Under the pieces are notes generated by a model. That model had not been told where the DNA came from and did no database searches. It saw only the letters and a list, made by a program, of their open reading frames with translations. The position numbers and the translations under genes are program-made. Shown here piece after piece: positions 23,627 through 45,352 of a stretch of 64,000 nucleotides of DNA. The stretch is taken from positions 1 through 64,000 of the forward strand of contig CBFHKU010000009.1 of the NCBI GenBank assembly GCA_965656495.1. The letters run 5' to 3'. Every line of letters starts with the position of its first letter. The first letter of the stretch is position 1. The stretch comes from Coraliomargaritaceae bacterium. Lineage in GTDB: Bacteria; Verrucomicrobiota; Verrucomicrobiia; Opitutales; Coraliomargaritaceae.

Positions 23627-23721
23627 TGAATTAACATTATAAAGTGGAGCAGAGCTGGCAAGTTTGAAGCGGCAGGGTTTTATTGCTTCACCTTGGTATT
23701 ATTCCTTATTAGGATTTGGTA

Positions 23722-24141
23722 ATGGGAGTCTATACTGAACAAATCGAGGCGCAGGCACCGGGCAAATCAACCGCAGAATTTACAGATGCGGTGGCATCGG
23801 GTTTGCGCAAAAGTGGCCTGCGGAATGGGAGCGTGACGGTCTTTTGCTGTCATACCGGTTGCAGTCTCGTCATTATGGAAAACGCGGATCGCTCCGCGCG
23901 GCGCGACCTCGAGCGTTTTATCGAGCGTCTCGTTCCGGAGCACGATCCCGATTTTACCCACACCCTCGAAGGGCCGGACGATATGCCCAGCCATATCAAG
24001 ATGGCGCTCACGCGAACCGCCGAGGTGATTCCATTTGTGGACGGACAGCTCTGCCTCGGTACCTGGCAGGGCGTTTTTCTATGGGAGCACCGGGCGCAGA
24101 GCCAGAAACGCCGCATCGTCCTGAGCTACCAGGGGGAGTAG
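23722..24141 (+). CDS. yjbQ: YjbQ/UPF0047 secondary thiamine-phosphate synthase family protein
   Basis: HTGCSLVIMENAD, H..EGPDDMPSHIK, LGTWQGVFLWEHR. Confidence 0.93.
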   Translation: MGVYTEQIEAQAPGKSTAEFTDAVASGLRKSGLRNGSVTVFCCHTGCSLVIMENADRSARRDLERFIERLVPEHDPDFTHTLEGPDDMPSHIKMALTRTAEVIPFVDGQLCLGTWQGVFLWEHRAQSQKRRIVLSYQGE

Positions 24142-24159
24142 GGCGGCGGCTTTCGATAC

Positions 24160-25110
24160 TTATGCCCGAGAGCTTCGCTGCGTGATAATATATACGGTAA
24201 ATAAAATCGCGAATGCGATGGCAGTCAAAATGACCAGGTGTAGCGCCGCATTATCAAATTTTTCAAAGAGCCATTTTATAAGACCGGTTGCGATCAGTGC
24301 GATGCTGCAAAGGCTGCCGATCAGCCATAAAAGTTTGTCTTTGATCATGTTTTCGAAGCTGGCCTTTAACTTTGCCTCATATTGTAGGAATTTCTCATCT
24401 ATATCTTGCGTGAGGGAGTCTATTTTTTCTGAAATTGTCTGAATTTTTTCATCGAGCTTGATGAGTTCGCTTCCGATATAATTGAACGGGTAGCCGGCTT
24501 CCTGTAATCGTTTTTTTGGATCCAGTTTATATATGGATGATGACACAATGAGGTCATCGTCAATGTCTACCGGTAATGAGCGGGCAGAAGTTTTGATTCC
24601 ATCGGTGTCTTGGTAGATGTGGTCACTTTGTGAGCCGTATGGGTTTTCGGGGGTTTCGTTTTCATCAAGCAAGAGGAGGGTAAGTTTAAAGAGGTGCCCT
24701 CCTTCCTTAAGGGTGATCGGGTTGGTGGAGCCATTTCTGATTCCCCAGTTCAGGTGACCTTTAAAACCGGCATCAATTTTTGTAGCGGCTTGTACAATAC
24801 CTTCCCGCATCATGGTGGTGGTAGGGGTTACGAAGCCCATTATCATTTGTCCCGGGTATTCCGCTTCCAGGGCAGCCGATGAGAAGTCTATTTTTTCTTT
24901 ACTCGAAACAATAACCGATTCGCCCGGATTAATCTTCAGGAAATGTCCTTTAGGGATCTTCTTTTCCTCTTTTGTTGCGAGGAAACGAACCGCATTACCC
25001 AAGCGCAATTCTACTCCATTGGGATTGATTTTTATATTACTGCTCTGGTCTCCAACAATGATGCTGGATAGGATTTTTCTAATTTCCTTATCGGGAAGCA
25101 ATTGAGCCAT
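24160..25110 (-). CDS. dCTP deaminase/dUTPase-fold protein fused to a coiled coil and two C-terminal TM helices; low GC
   Basis: LLPDKEIRK, INPNGVELRLG, INPGESV, IDAGFKG, PY...YQ..G match Dcd motifs; heptad segment about aa 215-258; hydrophobic helices about aa 260-278 and 288-309. Confidence 0.85.
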   Translation of the reverse strand: MAQLLPDKEIRKILSSIIVGDQSSNIKINPNGVELRLGNAVRFLATKEEKKIPKGHFLKINPGESVIVSSKEKIDFSSAALEAEYPGQMIMGFVTPTTTMMREGIVQAATKIDAGFKGHLNWGIRNGSTNPITLKEGGHLFKLTLLLLDENETPENPYGSQSDHIYQDTDGIKTSARSLPVDIDDDLIVSSSIYKLDPKKRLQEAGYPFNYIGSELIKLDEKIQTISEKIDSLTQDIDEKFLQYEAKLKASFENMIKDKLLWLIGSLCSIALIATGLIKWLFEKFDNAALHLVILTAIAFAILFTVYIITQRSSRA

Positions 25111-25159
25111 ATTTATATTCTTTATAAATTAGGCTGTTTATCAACAAAAATAAATTTAT

Positions 25160-26707
25160 TTACTGGGCGATTGCGAGCAGCGTTTCGATGGCGGGGACAT
25201 CCTTGATGATTTGGCTGGGTTCGGGGCCGACGCCGATGTAGCGGAGGTTGGGGAGCTTGGCAGGGCCCTGGTCGCCGTGGTTGGCGACGTCCACGAGGGC
25301 TTTGAGCATCCATGCCACGTAGTTTTGGGCGTTGGCGGGAAGCGCAGCAAAATGGCGCACGGTCGAGATGTCTTCGCTCCAGCCGGGGAGTTCCTTGTAA
25401 ACGGGTTGCAGGGTGCGGCGGTAGCTGTCGTCGCGGGGGACGTGGTGGATGCTGCGGCCCTCGGCGTCGCGGTAGGCGGTGCAGATGCGGAGCGATCCGT
25501 TCCAGTCGCCGGAATGGGAGAGGGCATCGAGTTTGTTGAGGACGAGGTCCTGATAGCCACCGTAACGGAGGGCATCGCCCTTTTCAACGGCGTCATACCA
25601 ACCGACCATGCGTTGGCGTCCGGTGGTGGCTCCGAATTCGATTTGGCGGAGTTGTTGACTGAGGGGGTGGTCGAGTTCGATTTCGGAAATAAAGGCGTGG
25701 GTGCCGACCTTGGTATCGTAGGCTTTGCAGCAACCGACATTGTGGATGGCTTGGACGGGGATGCCGGCGGACTGGAAGAACTCGGGGGTAAAGGTATGGG
25801 AGGCGGTGACGTTGGGCGGGAAGCCGTGCCGTTTGTCGAGCCAGTAGGCTTGGCCGAACTCGCCGATGACGTAGCGGCCCTGGTCGACTTCGCGGAGGAT
25901 GAGTTCGCGCACGTCGGTGATTTGCGGGGCGAGGATTTGACCGGCGGCCCAGTAGGTTTCGATGAGGGCTTCGGTGTTTAGGGTGAAGGGTTCGGCGCTA
26001 GCGAAGGCGGCAAAATCAAAATCCTGGGCGGGGGCTTTTCCGGCTTGGATGATTTCGGCATTGGCGCGGGATTCCGCTTCGCCGAGGGTTGCGAAAGCGG
26101 CGAGCCAACGCTCGGGGGAAATTTGGCAGACGTGTTGAATGATGCGGCAGGTGCGCTCGATGCGTTCACGGAATTTTTCCACGAAGTGGTCTTTGGGGCC
26201 GTGGAGGTCTGCGTAATAAATTTGGAATTGCCCGACTTCATCGAGGTAGGCGGGGGTGATTCCGCGACCGGTGGAACCTCGGGCTTCGCCGCCGGGGAGG
26301 CGTTGGCGGTAGTCTTCCCATGCCAGGTCGAGGAGGCGGTGACTGAGGTCGGAGAGGAGGCAACGCTCGTCGATGGCAAGGCGTTCGAGGGCGCGGTGAC
26401 CGTGGAGTTCGGCATAGGCGCATTCCCAGAGGAATTTGCGGGGATCGGCGACCACCCCACAACCGATCGGCAGGTGTGGTACTTCGGGATCGGCGACGCC
26501 GCCCGGCAGGAGGTTGAGCTTGAGGCCTGCGACGGTGTGACCGGAGTTGGAACCGCCGTTGACTTTCATGACGGCGCCCACCGCATCGCGGTGTCCGGTG
26601 GATTCCCGTAGTTCGTTGACGATCTCAAGGATGACGCGGCCTTTGCCCTCGTCGCCGGTTGAGATGCCGGTATCGGCAATGAGTTGACTCTGAAATGGAG
26701 TGAGCAT
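25160..26707 (-). CDS. purA: Adenylosuccinate synthetase (divergent, with insertion)
   Basis: [45 protein letters not shown]; next to guaB. Confidence 0.93.
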
Positions 26708-43591: not shown

Positions 43592-45352
43592 ATGTTTTTA
43601 AAAAAGAATAACAGATTGGGTTGGGCTTCGGGATTGGATCGACAGGCAGAGGATGGATACATCAAGGCGAGCTTGATCTTGCTATGTTGTGTCGCCGTTT
43701 TGGCAGCTTTTTGGATGCTCTCGAAGCTGGGTCCGAAGACTATTGACTATGAGACCATTGACACCTCGCAATATGAAGTAACGGATGCCATGCTTAAATT
43801 GCAGGAAAAAAGTCTGATTCATGAGGGCAGTTTTGATGAAATCCTGTCGCTGCGTAAACCGAGTGCCGAGGATGTAGCTATTTTAAAACAGGCCTTGGAT
43901 TTTCAAGAGGCGTACATCAAGGCGCTTCCAAGTTATGACGTGGAGGGGGAGTTGCGATTAAGAAGCCTCCGGGAGCGCTACGCCGAGCATGCCAGTTTGC
44001 CCATTCTGGAGAAAAGCCGGGCATTGGAGGCGGAAGCGGATGCGCTATCAATGAAGAAGGATTACCTGGCTGCGCACGAGCGCATGAAACACGCATTTGA
44101 ACGGCAAAAGCAGATCAACGAGCAATTTCCCCAAAGCCCGCATGTGAACCACGGACGTGCGACCCTCTTGCAACGGAAATCCCGATACCTGATTGCGGAA
44201 CCCATTTATCAGGAAAGTTTGGATTTGGAAGCGGTGGCGGATGGGCATATCAAGGCGATGGAATGGGAAGCTGCAGAGGAAACTTTGAACAATGCGATTA
44301 ACATACAGACGGATATCAATCGTTCTTACCGCGGAACAAAGCAGGCCAGCACCTTGCGATTGGAATTACTGAAGACAAAATTACTTGGGATTCAGTCGGG
44401 TCAAAGCAATCTGGAGATTGTTGCGTTGGAAGAGAAGGCTGATGCCTTGAAGGCGCAAGGTGAAATGCTGGAATCCGCGCATTGTTATCAAGAGGCGGCA
44501 CGATTACAGGGGGAGCTCAATAAAAACTTTCCGCAAAGCCCGCACGCTTCCTCAGATCGCGCTAATTATTTTTTACGCAAAGCTCAAACCGCGCAAAGCT
44601 TTGAGTTAGGCCGCACTATCGAGGCCAATCATGCCCGGCTTGAACAAATTCTGGCTGAACGCCGCACTTACGACGCAGTTGAACTCATCGCGCAACTTAG
44701 CCGCGATATTCAATACATGCAAGATGCGCATCCCCGCAGCTCGCTCTTTGATGAAGAACTCAAATTAAAGATCAGTTATCTTGCTATCATTAAAAATGAT
44801 TTGGGTTTCATTCAGGATCGTGTTTACGCGATGCTTTTACCTGTTCCTGAAGTGGAAGACTGGCATATGGCAAAAACCGAGGTAACGCAGGTGTTATATC
44901 AGTTTATTATGGGGGAAAATCCCAGCCGTAACACCGGCGAGACGAAACCGGTCGATTCGGTGAGCTGGTTGGAGGCGAAGGATTTTTGTAAACGCTTGGG
45001 CTGGATTTTGGGCAAGCCTGTGCGCCTGCCGACCGAGCATGAATTCCGTCAAGCTCTGGGGCCCTTGCGCTATGTTGTGCTTGAGAAACATGTTTGGAGT
45101 GTTTCCGATGCGAGAGAGATCGCGAGACCGGTAGGTCAAAAGGAGCCCTTCTCAAGTGGATATTACGACCTTCTGGGTAATCTCAGTGAATGGCTGGAAT
45201 CGATTGATCAATTCGATGAGGAAGATGCGCATCATATCGGTGGTCACGCCGGTGACCGAATTGAGGTGATTTTCAGTGTGCCGCGCCGCAGCACCTCACG
45301 GGCCGAGCGCAATCGCTTAACGGGCTTTCGTTTTGTCGCAAAATTAAGCTAG
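43592..45352 (+). CDS. Membrane-anchored protein with helical repeats and a C-terminal FGE-sulfatase (SUMF1) domain
   Basis: N-terminal TM; KTEVTQ, PVDSVSW.EA..FC, RLPTEHE, YDLLGNLSEW, GFR. Confidence 0.88.
   Translation: MFLKKNNRLGWASGLDRQAEDGYIKASLILLCCVAVLAAFWMLSKLGPKTIDYETIDTSQYEVTDAMLKLQEKSLIHEGSFDEILSLRKPSAEDVAILKQALDFQEAYIKALPSYDVEGELRLRSLRERYAEHASLPILEKSRALEAEADALSMKKDYLAAHERMKHAFERQKQINEQFPQSPHVNHGRATLLQRKSRYLIAEPIYQESLDLEAVADGHIKAMEWEAAEETLNNAINIQTDINRSYRGTKQASTLRLELLKTKLLGIQSGQSNLEIVALEEKADALKAQGEMLESAHCYQEAARLQGELNKNFPQSPHASSDRANYFLRKAQTAQSFELGRTIEANHARLEQILAERRTYDAVELIAQLSRDIQYMQDAHPRSSLFDEELKLKISYLAIIKNDLGFIQDRVYAMLLPVPEVEDWHMAKTEVTQVLYQFIMGENPSRNTGETKPVDSVSWLEAKDFCKRLGWILGKPVRLPTEHEFRQALGPLRYVVLEKHVWSVSDAREIARPVGQKEPFSSGYYDLLGNLSEWLESIDQFDEEDAHHIGGHAGDRIEVIFSVPRRSTSRAERNRLTGFRFVAKLS

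Follow-up and report, generated by a model that had tools for sequence, protein, structure and literature searches.

The window analysed here is a stretch of 64,000 nucleotides from a Coraliomargaritaceae bacterium (assembly GCA_965656495.1, contig CBFHKU010000009.1, positions 1 to 64,000). On its minus strand, at 24160..25110, it carries a gene that was horizontally acquired at an otherwise empty junction between purA and yjbQ. The 316-residue product belongs to a rare, widely scattered and patchily distributed family, in which a head with the fold of dCTP deaminases (Dcd) and dUTPases is followed by a conserved collar, a coiled-coil stalk and two transmembrane (TM) helices; a complex model supports its assembly as a homotrimer. 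Our leading reading, which we hold tentatively, is of an accessory membrane effector that works as a nucleotide-gated trimer and probably takes part in conflicts with phages or other mobile DNA. The gene and the parts of its product are as follows.

24160..25110, minus strand: coding sequence of the 316-residue protein with head, collar, stalk and two TM helices; ATG start, stop at 24160-24162
24595..25110, minus strand: head, residues 1-172, Dcd/dUTPase fold with a C-terminal lid (from profile, structure search and alignment)
24481..24594, minus strand: collar, residues 173-210, family-specific and conserved (from alignment and trimer model)
24334..24480, minus strand: coiled-coil stalk, residues 211-259, variable in sequence and length across the family
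24265..24333, minus strand: TM helix 1, residues 260-282, continuous with the stalk
24178..24243, minus strand: TM helix 2, residues 290-311, followed by the basic tail RSSRA

A dUTPase-type head that has lost the deaminase glutamate

The head matches the Pfam family PF22769 (DCD) over residues 5-144 with an E value of 8.4e-12, and scores under the cut-offs of the curated models TIGR02274 (Dcd; 53.7 bits, cut-off 92.8) and NF002598 (archaeal Dcd-like dUTPase; 26.2 bits, cut-off 130). The AlphaFold model, which has a predicted local distance difference test score (pLDDT) of about 85 across residues 1-150, is grouped by Foldseek with Dcd and Dcd-like dUTPases. The best match is the Thermococcus pacificus dUTPase 8y1w (E 1.9e-10, TMt 0.78), and the other best matches are the Dcd:dUTPases of M. 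tuberculosis and B. halodurans, the 'P45' dUTPase 9ln0 and E. coli Dcd (TMt 0.70-0.83). The top sequence-profile match is the Sulfolobus tokodaii dUTPase 2yzj (E 5.5e-10).

In an alignment to the M. tuberculosis enzyme 2qxx, 'GHITLELSN' pairs with 'GHLNWGIRN', with LEL aligned to W122-G123-I124. Gly123, nearly invariant in the family, stands at the position of the deaminase Glu, next to the invariant Trp122. The Glu of the G.I.LE strand is the catalytic residue of the deaminases, as PDB entries of E138 and E145 variants reflect, and because it is replaced by Gly the head would be unable to deaminate dCTP. The archaeal dUTPases in the alignment likewise lack this Glu. The phosphate motif, GRSSLARLG in the enzymes, reads PTTTMMREG. 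It retains the second Arg (R102) as well as Ser-like Thr residues, and has Thr97 in place of the first basic residue (R/K in enzymes) throughout the family. Judged from the sequence, the phosphate site is altered and not destroyed. Asp113 of the IDAG motif, which corresponds to the general base of dUTPases, is kept and invariant in the family.

A 30-member alignment extends this picture, the invariant head residues being P30 N31 G32, T95-T99, R102 E103 G104, K111, D113, G115, G118, L120, W122, R125 N126, Y158 G159, Y166 Q167 and G171. The features of a monofunctional dUTPase are all present, namely the (I/V)D.G Asp, the Arg and Ser/Thr residues of the phosphate motif and the C-terminal lid. 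The invariance of pocket and lid speaks for binding of a pyrimidine deoxynucleotide in the manner of Dcd and dUTPases, and Trp122/Gly123 on the base-facing strand may be the site that sets specificity for dUTP or 5-substituted pyrimidines.

An earlier note, made from the letters of this DNA, had proposed a Dcd fold with an altered deaminase signature. The motif order that it gave holds (LLPDKEIR, INPNGVELRLG, INPGESV, TPTTTMMREG, IDAGFKGHLNWG, PYG...YQDTDG), and so do the fold, the lost Glu and the kept Asp. Two parts of the claim have to be amended: R102 and the Thr residues are retained, leaving a phosphate site that does not appear destroyed, and among solved structures the closest relatives are archaeal dUTPases that lack the Glu, and not deaminases.

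A predicted trimer on a register-keeping stalk

When three copies were co-folded, the interface score ipSAE was 0.71/0.68/0.72, against 0.00 for the best of 3 controls. In the calibration of the tool, the mark was attained by 20 of the 30 proteins whose structures were solved as pairs and by 1 of the 23 that were solved as single chains; our run differed from that calibration in using an alignment of our own and three copies. At least 91% of contacts are shared between the runs, and partner pLDDT is at least 74. The contacts of lowest error between chains lie at residues 212-230 in the stalk, a region without a solved homologue, and heptad-spaced contacts run through 212-282 and on into TM2 (291-310). 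Residues of the lid and collar (151-193 and 198-209) contact neighbouring chains in the model, and the invariant P30-N31 of one chain contacts D113-A114 of another, which would place conserved residues in an inter-subunit pocket, as in the enzymes. A homotrimer, as the earlier note had suspected, is supported by this complex model, and the stalk is best described as a predicted parallel three-stranded coiled coil that runs into the membrane.

The collar has low pLDDT in the monomer model and is conserved at S175, R177, P180, S191, D197, K199, L202, A205 G206 and P208. Beyond it, AlphaFold predicts a long helix at 211-284 and a second helix at 288-315, and hydropathy places the TM cores at 255-273 and 292-310; the heptad coiled coil and two TM helices described after the head are thereby borne out. 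Of 119 members, 114 have two TM helices. The outer loop between them has 7 residues in the window protein and at most 19 across these 114 members, whose C-terminal tails have a mean net charge of +2.4. The basic tail and the short outer loop place both termini in the cytoplasm and nothing outside the membrane. With neither a periplasmic nor another cytoplasmic domain, the protein could act only through the catalytic activity of its head, through its six-helix membrane bundle or through a recruited partner.

Of 119 members bearing the AG.P motif, 116 show a TM helix beyond it, and in these the stalk length was taken as the distance between the motif and the final charged residue ahead of TM1. 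The distances are 51, 55, 58, 62, 65, 69, 73, 76, 80, 87, 97 and 102 residues. By remainder modulo 7, they fall into classes 6, 3, 2 and 4 (72, 32, 11 and 1 members), with none in classes 0, 1 and 5, a pattern that is descriptive since the members are related to one another. These lengths fit a continuous helix in which the core register is kept. P0005, a near-identical allele of 358 residues on another contig, has exactly six extra heptads (42 residues; IDERFKR IDEKFKR MDKTFLH IDLQFQR MNEQFLR IDEQFLN) where the window protein has one, and the stalk seems to change length by tandem duplication of a 21-nt unit.

The family is conserved, rare and found in uncultured bacteria

The open reading frame (ORF) is not a chance frame, because it has full-length homologues at E values as low as 1e-87 with 48% identity. 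A word-indexed search returned 562 proteins at E up to 1e-3. Among the 120 of these that were listed, nearly all have 300-345 residues and most align over 84-100% of the query with 42-56% identity; among the matches listed, five are 85-99% identical to the window protein. More than 500 homologues of the same architecture were found in at least 10 phyla. The 30-member alignment holds 61 invariant columns, none of them beyond residue 227, so that they fall in the head, the collar and the first turns of the stalk, and the remaining stalk and the TM helices are conserved in kind only. A profile search of 1.84 billion cluster representatives gave 693 hits at 1e-3, 146 at 1e-10 and 75 at 1e-30, many of the hits being fragments.

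Relatives were found in 50 species-representative genomes, all 50 of them metagenome-assembled genomes (MAGs), and the family has presumably gone unnoticed because all its genome hits come from uncultured bacteria. In a quick tree of 43 proteins, the 38 that carry a phylum label fall into 11 groups with 15 label changes, where the minimum is 10 and the mean after shuffling is 19.1. Phyla are intermingled on the tree, and some pairs from different phyla are close, such as Zixibacteria with Syntrophaceae (branch lengths 0.13). The branch of the window protein is long (1.05 against a median of 0.23) and does not lie beside that of its homologue in the closest relative. No relative was found when viral contigs were scanned with profiles of the family, of a sister family (P0283) and of a distant group (P0268), and tblastn against isolate phages and plasmids gave no full-length relative: Sulfolobus rudivirus dUTPases and one Rhizobium plasmid ORF matched in the head domain alone, at about 30% identity.

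The sister family, of about 325 residues, has the same plan (SPTTDLSREG ... TQVDAGF.GTLNWT ... SGYPWN ... coiled coil ... 2 TM). More distant Glu-less Dcd-like proteins have 240-260 residues, a coiled coil and one or two TM helices. One protein, P0182, joins a sister-type head to a TIR_2 domain (Pfam E 8.5e-18); it is the sole example of its kind, encoded on a contig of 1,710 bp. A search for longer fusions of the head (above 553 residues) returned none, which is weak evidence, and the collar, stalk and TM part, used by itself as an atlas query, gave no usable match. Two further candidates, P0186 (integrase-N, head and NUDIX) and P0133, appear to be chimeric or truncated calls and were set aside.

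A clean insertion between purA and yjbQ

The surroundings of the gene in the window are these.

25160..26707, minus strand: PurA-like adenylosuccinate synthetase (PF00709), the upstream flank on the same strand
25111..25159, minus strand: leader of 49 nt with 14% GC, from the purA stop to the ATG, within the inserted DNA
24150..25159, no strand: insertion of about 1.0 kb, extent approximate, relative to the empty purA-yjbQ junction of congeners
23716..24141, plus strand: UPF0047/YjbQ gene, the convergent flank

The gene is horizontally acquired, as had been proposed from its solitary, low-GC appearance between purA and yjbQ. The junction is empty in 5 of 5 same-genus genomes examined (G001, G002, G004, G005 and G006; G003 is not among them). 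In these congeners the purA and yjbQ stops converge within about 0-10 nt and the flanking proteins are 81-97% identical to those of the window, in which about 1.0 kb separates the two stops and contains solely the gene and its leader. Vertical conservation at this locus across the clade was looked for in the same genomes and is not seen. Of 41 relatives, 2 have a homologue, and a sample of 401 genomes across the phylum likewise gave 2. The second carrier, G006, is the closest relative (purA 97% identical); its purA-yjbQ site is empty, and its homologue, only 46% identical, lies at a different site, flanked by nadA and a BrnT toxin gene, in what appears to be the same locus as L008. No transposase, terminal repeats or target-site duplication were recognised at the insertion in the window.

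Composition agrees with the earlier description of a low-GC gene on the minus strand with its own AT-rich leader. The hand counts of G and C given there were exact when recomputed (19/60 at 24421-24480, 22/60 at 25021-25080 and 38/60 at 25201-25260). The GC content of the gene is 0.435 against 0.553 for the window, its GC at third codon positions is 0.48 against 0.67-0.74 in the flanking genes, and an equally low GC occurs in only 1 of 631 sliding windows of 951 bp. A promoter scan of the leader gave 1 match against 1.5 expected from shuffled sequences and is no evidence of a promoter. The farther neighbours in the window, namely hisB, a sigma-54 response regulator, a DUF1573 gene, IMPDH and a MenC-like gene, are all housekeeping genes.

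The stretch was found in marine or aquatic metagenomes of 5 studies, with a word share of at least 0.66. One run (X10) holds an identical contig with the gene at depth 5, together with an empty-site contig of a relative with diverged flanks at depth 52. Another (X15) holds the whole stretch with 31 differences; among the differences listed, 5 lie in the gene and all are synonymous third-position changes, a further 18 differences lying outside those listed. These synonymous differences indicate purifying selection on the gene. In an RNA library (X18), one contig matches 24923-25190 with 0 differences. It spans the leader together with the end of purA and the initial 188 nt of the gene, which weakly hints at transcription, perhaps as read-through from purA. 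The RNA runs X18 and X19 leave most of the gene uncovered and have no bearing on its expression.

Some observations on the same DNA and its relatives are recorded here in their own right. The second lowest-GC stretch of the window (44700-45350, below 0.47) is the C-terminal part of a 586-residue ORF (43592-45352, plus strand) with an FGE-sulfatase domain. The PurA-like protein (25160-26707) is unusually long, at 515 residues, and its Pfam match comes in two stretches, the best covering residues 242-469 only. In a Zixibacteria MAG (L009, 8258-12355), the homologue lies between genes for the large and small subunits of an aconitase-family (LeuC/LeuD-like) enzyme, another insertion into a housekeeping pair.

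The host and its relatives were also searched for ordinary dUTPases. The trimeric dUTPase family PF00692 is found in 0 of 26 genomes searched in the order (the host genome G000 and 25 relatives). PF22769 occurs in 2 of the 26, only as the membrane-anchored family, and no ordinary Dcd was found in the 26. The host genome has a dimeric-type dUTPase (PF08761) at G000:C3:131131-131460. Because the host has this separate dUTPase, the gene is not a housekeeping gene, and the idea that it substitutes for a missing housekeeping dUTPase was rejected. Among acidobacterial genomes with a homologue, PF00692 is also present in 3 of 5.

Genomic company of the family

Naive ORFs within 6 kb of the gene were clustered in 50 loci. 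No partner gene is conserved in these loci, apart from a recurrent IS1-like transposase, and neither a cyclase nor another signal-making operon partner of the CBASS or Pycsar type is conserved. The IS1-like gene, of about 300 codons, is present in 8 of the 50 loci and matches NF033558 at an E value of about 1e-17, below the cut-off. In six loci (L023, L031, L032, L034, L045 and L048) it precedes the homologue by about 140 bp, in the same orientation; the other two are L046 and L001. Transposase and homologue have diverged together, to 68-71% nucleotide identity, as if moved or kept as a pair. The transposase gene has 1-8 diverged matches per genome in 5 genomes searched, and no convincing terminal inverted repeats were found around the pair in 5 loci. 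IS1595 genes adjoin the homologue in 2 further loci.

A Pfam scan covered up to 3 of the nearest ORFs on each side (258 ORFs, 49 loci), with classes assigned by reading family names. Neighbours related to mobile elements, toxin-antitoxin, restriction, Abi or Schlafen-like families occur in 25 of the 49 loci. They include hsdRMS directly upstream (L018), AbiEi/AbiEii (L041), MazE/PIN (L047), SocA-Panacea (L006, L029), Schlafen/AlbA_2 (L016, L045), MTES_1575 helicase-nucleases (L012, L019), Fic with a DNA methylase (L036), and genes of IS1, IS1595 and IS481 type. A dCMP-hydroxymethylase partner was considered and set aside, as none of the 258 ORFs matched the thymidylate-synthase family. An association of the family with defence and mobile regions is suggested by this company.

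In 4 of the 49 loci (L004, L021, L024 and L028), Toastrack proteins (DUF4097) are encoded no more than three ORFs from the homologue, which may be chance; in L004 they are accompanied by DUF2089/SHOCT genes.

Comparison with known systems

The best sequence and fold matches are the archaeal Dcd-like monofunctional dUTPases (2yzj/2zdc from Sulfolobus tokodaii, 8y1w from Thermococcus pacificus and 9ln0/9ln3, 'P45'), which have the same beta-fold head. They too lack the deaminase Glu, with Ala or Met in its place where the window protein has Gly, and share its Asp, phosphate-motif Arg and lid. However, they are soluble proteins of 150-170 residues, whereas the window protein adds a collar, a stalk and two TM helices, has Thr at the first basic position and the invariant Trp122, and is about 22% identical to them. 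Similarly, the Dcd:dUTPases and E. coli Dcd (2qxx, 4xjc, 1xs1) share the fold, the trimer-type interfaces and the YG...YQ..G lid; in contrast to these enzymes, the window protein has its catalytic Glu replaced, falls below the TIGR02274 cut-off, is membrane-anchored and is not housekeeping. Thus, by its sequence, the protein is neither a Dcd nor a member of the curated archaeal dUTPase family, though it is nearest to the latter in sequence and fold.

Anti-phage dCTP deaminases are soluble proteins that keep the catalytic Glu and carry an N-terminal kinase-like domain. Like the window protein, they have a Dcd-superfamily domain encoded in a single accessory gene and deal in deoxynucleotides, but the window protein has lost the Glu, has gained a TM hairpin and matches no PADLOC model. 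Systems of this kind, in which a dCTP deaminase or a dGTPase depletes deoxynucleoside triphosphates (dNTPs), were reportedly described by Tal and colleagues in 2022. The TM effectors of CBASS and Pycsar follow a similar logic, with a nucleotide-binding module controlling a cell-killing output. In the Kongming system (PMC13454610), KomB is a protein of NTP-pyrophosphatase fold within a dITP-activated effector complex. Unlike in CBASS, Pycsar and Kongming, no cyclase, kinase, SIR2 or other partner accompanies the window gene, and the ligand would be read by the effector itself, with a dUTPase fold that is not SAVED, CARF or HAM1 and has no homology to those systems. No account of a Dcd-fold protein that combines a coiled coil with TM helices turned up in full-text literature searches. 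The DefensePredictor paper names 'a dUTPase' among its unvalidated predicted defence domains (PMC13092281).

Discussion

We propose, with due reserve, the following mode of action for this horizontally acquired, stand-alone accessory gene. Three copies would assemble through the dUTPase-like head, the conserved collar and a parallel coiled coil into a bundle of six TM helices, and the inter-subunit pocket for a pyrimidine dNTP would be kept, with its Asp, its Arg, the Thr run and the YG...YQ...G lid. A deoxynucleotide would then bind the pockets; candidates are dUTP, dCTP and a pyrimidine dNTP that a phage makes or modifies. In Dcd and dUTPases the C-terminal arm becomes ordered over the bound nucleotide. 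Here the lid is covalently continuous with the collar and stalk, and a ligand that orders it could couple the head to the stalk. The change would pass down the stalk to the TM bundle, the membrane would be perturbed and the infected cell would stop growing, as in abortive infection. We infer the defence role from these features and from the genomic company of the family.

It is also tempting to consider a bolder version of this mechanism, which we regard as rather doubtful. The protein would be a one-protein immune receptor whose reshaped base pocket (Trp122/Gly123 for Leu/Glu) directly reads an infection-specific pyrimidine dNTP and opens the six-helix bundle. The trigger could be dUTP or a 5-substituted dCTP or dUTP produced by phage enzymes, and neither a second messenger nor a partner would be involved. 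Stalk length would be tuned by heptad duplication, and the head would perhaps be recombined with other effectors, as the one TIR fusion hints.

Several observations weigh against an effector acting in defence. The retained Asp, Arg and lid suit an active dUTPase equally well as a sensor. The TM helices are ordinary hydrophobic helices with no evident pore-lining residues, and the head part of the trimer result, whose interfaces resemble those of solved Dcd and dUTPase trimers, may reflect the model's memory of them. The TIR fusion of P0182 may be a chimera, and we use it only as a lead to effector swapping. Moreover, the window and roughly half of the loci have plain housekeeping neighbours. 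As to the clustering in defence islands that the earlier note proposed to check, PADLOC hits fall on 22 of 142 ORFs in 17 of 48 loci among the three nearest ORFs, and on 9 of 116 ORFs in 7 of 40 loci among ORFs of these loci that lie 5.5 kb or more from the gene, a modest enrichment near the gene that is statistically weak (odds ratio 2.2, p 0.08). Dropping generic hits (the methyltransferase 'mad2', ABC-type ATPases and IscS as DndA) gives 14 against 3 and p 0.02, a value reached only after this post-hoc removal and among loci that are related to one another. A scan of the protein itself against PADLOC-DB 2.0.0, including its dCTP deaminase defence models, found 0 families at E up to 1.

If the head is an active enzyme, the protein may instead be a membrane-tethered pyrophosphatase of dUTPase type, acting on dUTP, dCTP or a modified dNTP, with the stalk and TM hairpin merely positioning the head at the inner face of the membrane. 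The deoxynucleotide would be depleted or sanitised, for example at phage DNA entry or replication, and the membrane would stay undamaged. The closeness to the Glu-less archaeal dUTPases 2yzj, 9ln0 and 8y1w speaks for such an enzyme, as do the invariant Asp113, Arg102, Thr/Ser run and lid, and dNTP depletion is an established defence strategy, the dCTPase SthRAP-8 being a case in point. However, an enzyme that merely depletes dNTPs would have no need of a hairpin anchor in the membrane or of a stalk whose register is kept over 50-100 residues, and for this reason we favour the membrane effector. Thr97 replaces the first basic phosphate-motif residue throughout the family, the host already has a dUTPase, and the PADLOC models for dNTP depletion give no match. 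We consider a tethered enzyme, though the main rival, somewhat unlikely.

The recurrent transposases raise the question of a role outside phage defence. The protein could be cargo that aids the persistence of a mobile element, by addiction or exclusion, or it could regulate a membrane process in response to nucleotides; it would spread by travelling with IS elements. The co-diverged IS1-like gene in 8 of 50 loci and IS1595 in 2 more fit this idea, and so do the many loci, the window included, that have no defence gene nearby. Yet the IS1-like pair shows no terminal inverted repeats, no transposase accompanies the gene in the window, no conserved partner or target is visible, and the idea makes no specific prediction; we hold it to be unlikely. 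Least of all would we expect a decaying, functionless remnant of a transferred dcd or dut gene with a fortuitous hydrophobic tail. Low GC, the lost catalytic Glu and the long terminal branch would be in keeping with decay, but more than 500 full-length homologues share the architecture and its 61 invariant columns, the frame is intact, the 5 listed differences in the gene are synonymous and the gene is present in runs of 5 studies. This explanation is strongly disfavoured and has very little probability.

The proteins of the dUTPase and Dcd fold are textbook soluble enzymes of nucleotide metabolism, and a conserved dUTPase-fold family that forms a predicted membrane-anchored trimer on a stalk is undescribed in the literature searched. 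At about 320 residues it offers a compact module for study, and the clean 1-kb insertion, with its empty site in sister genomes, provides a natural gain-of-gene comparison. If the accessory membrane effector that we favour does sense dNTPs and act on the membrane, it would add to the logic of bacterial immunity a direct and partner-free way of reading the dNTP pool.

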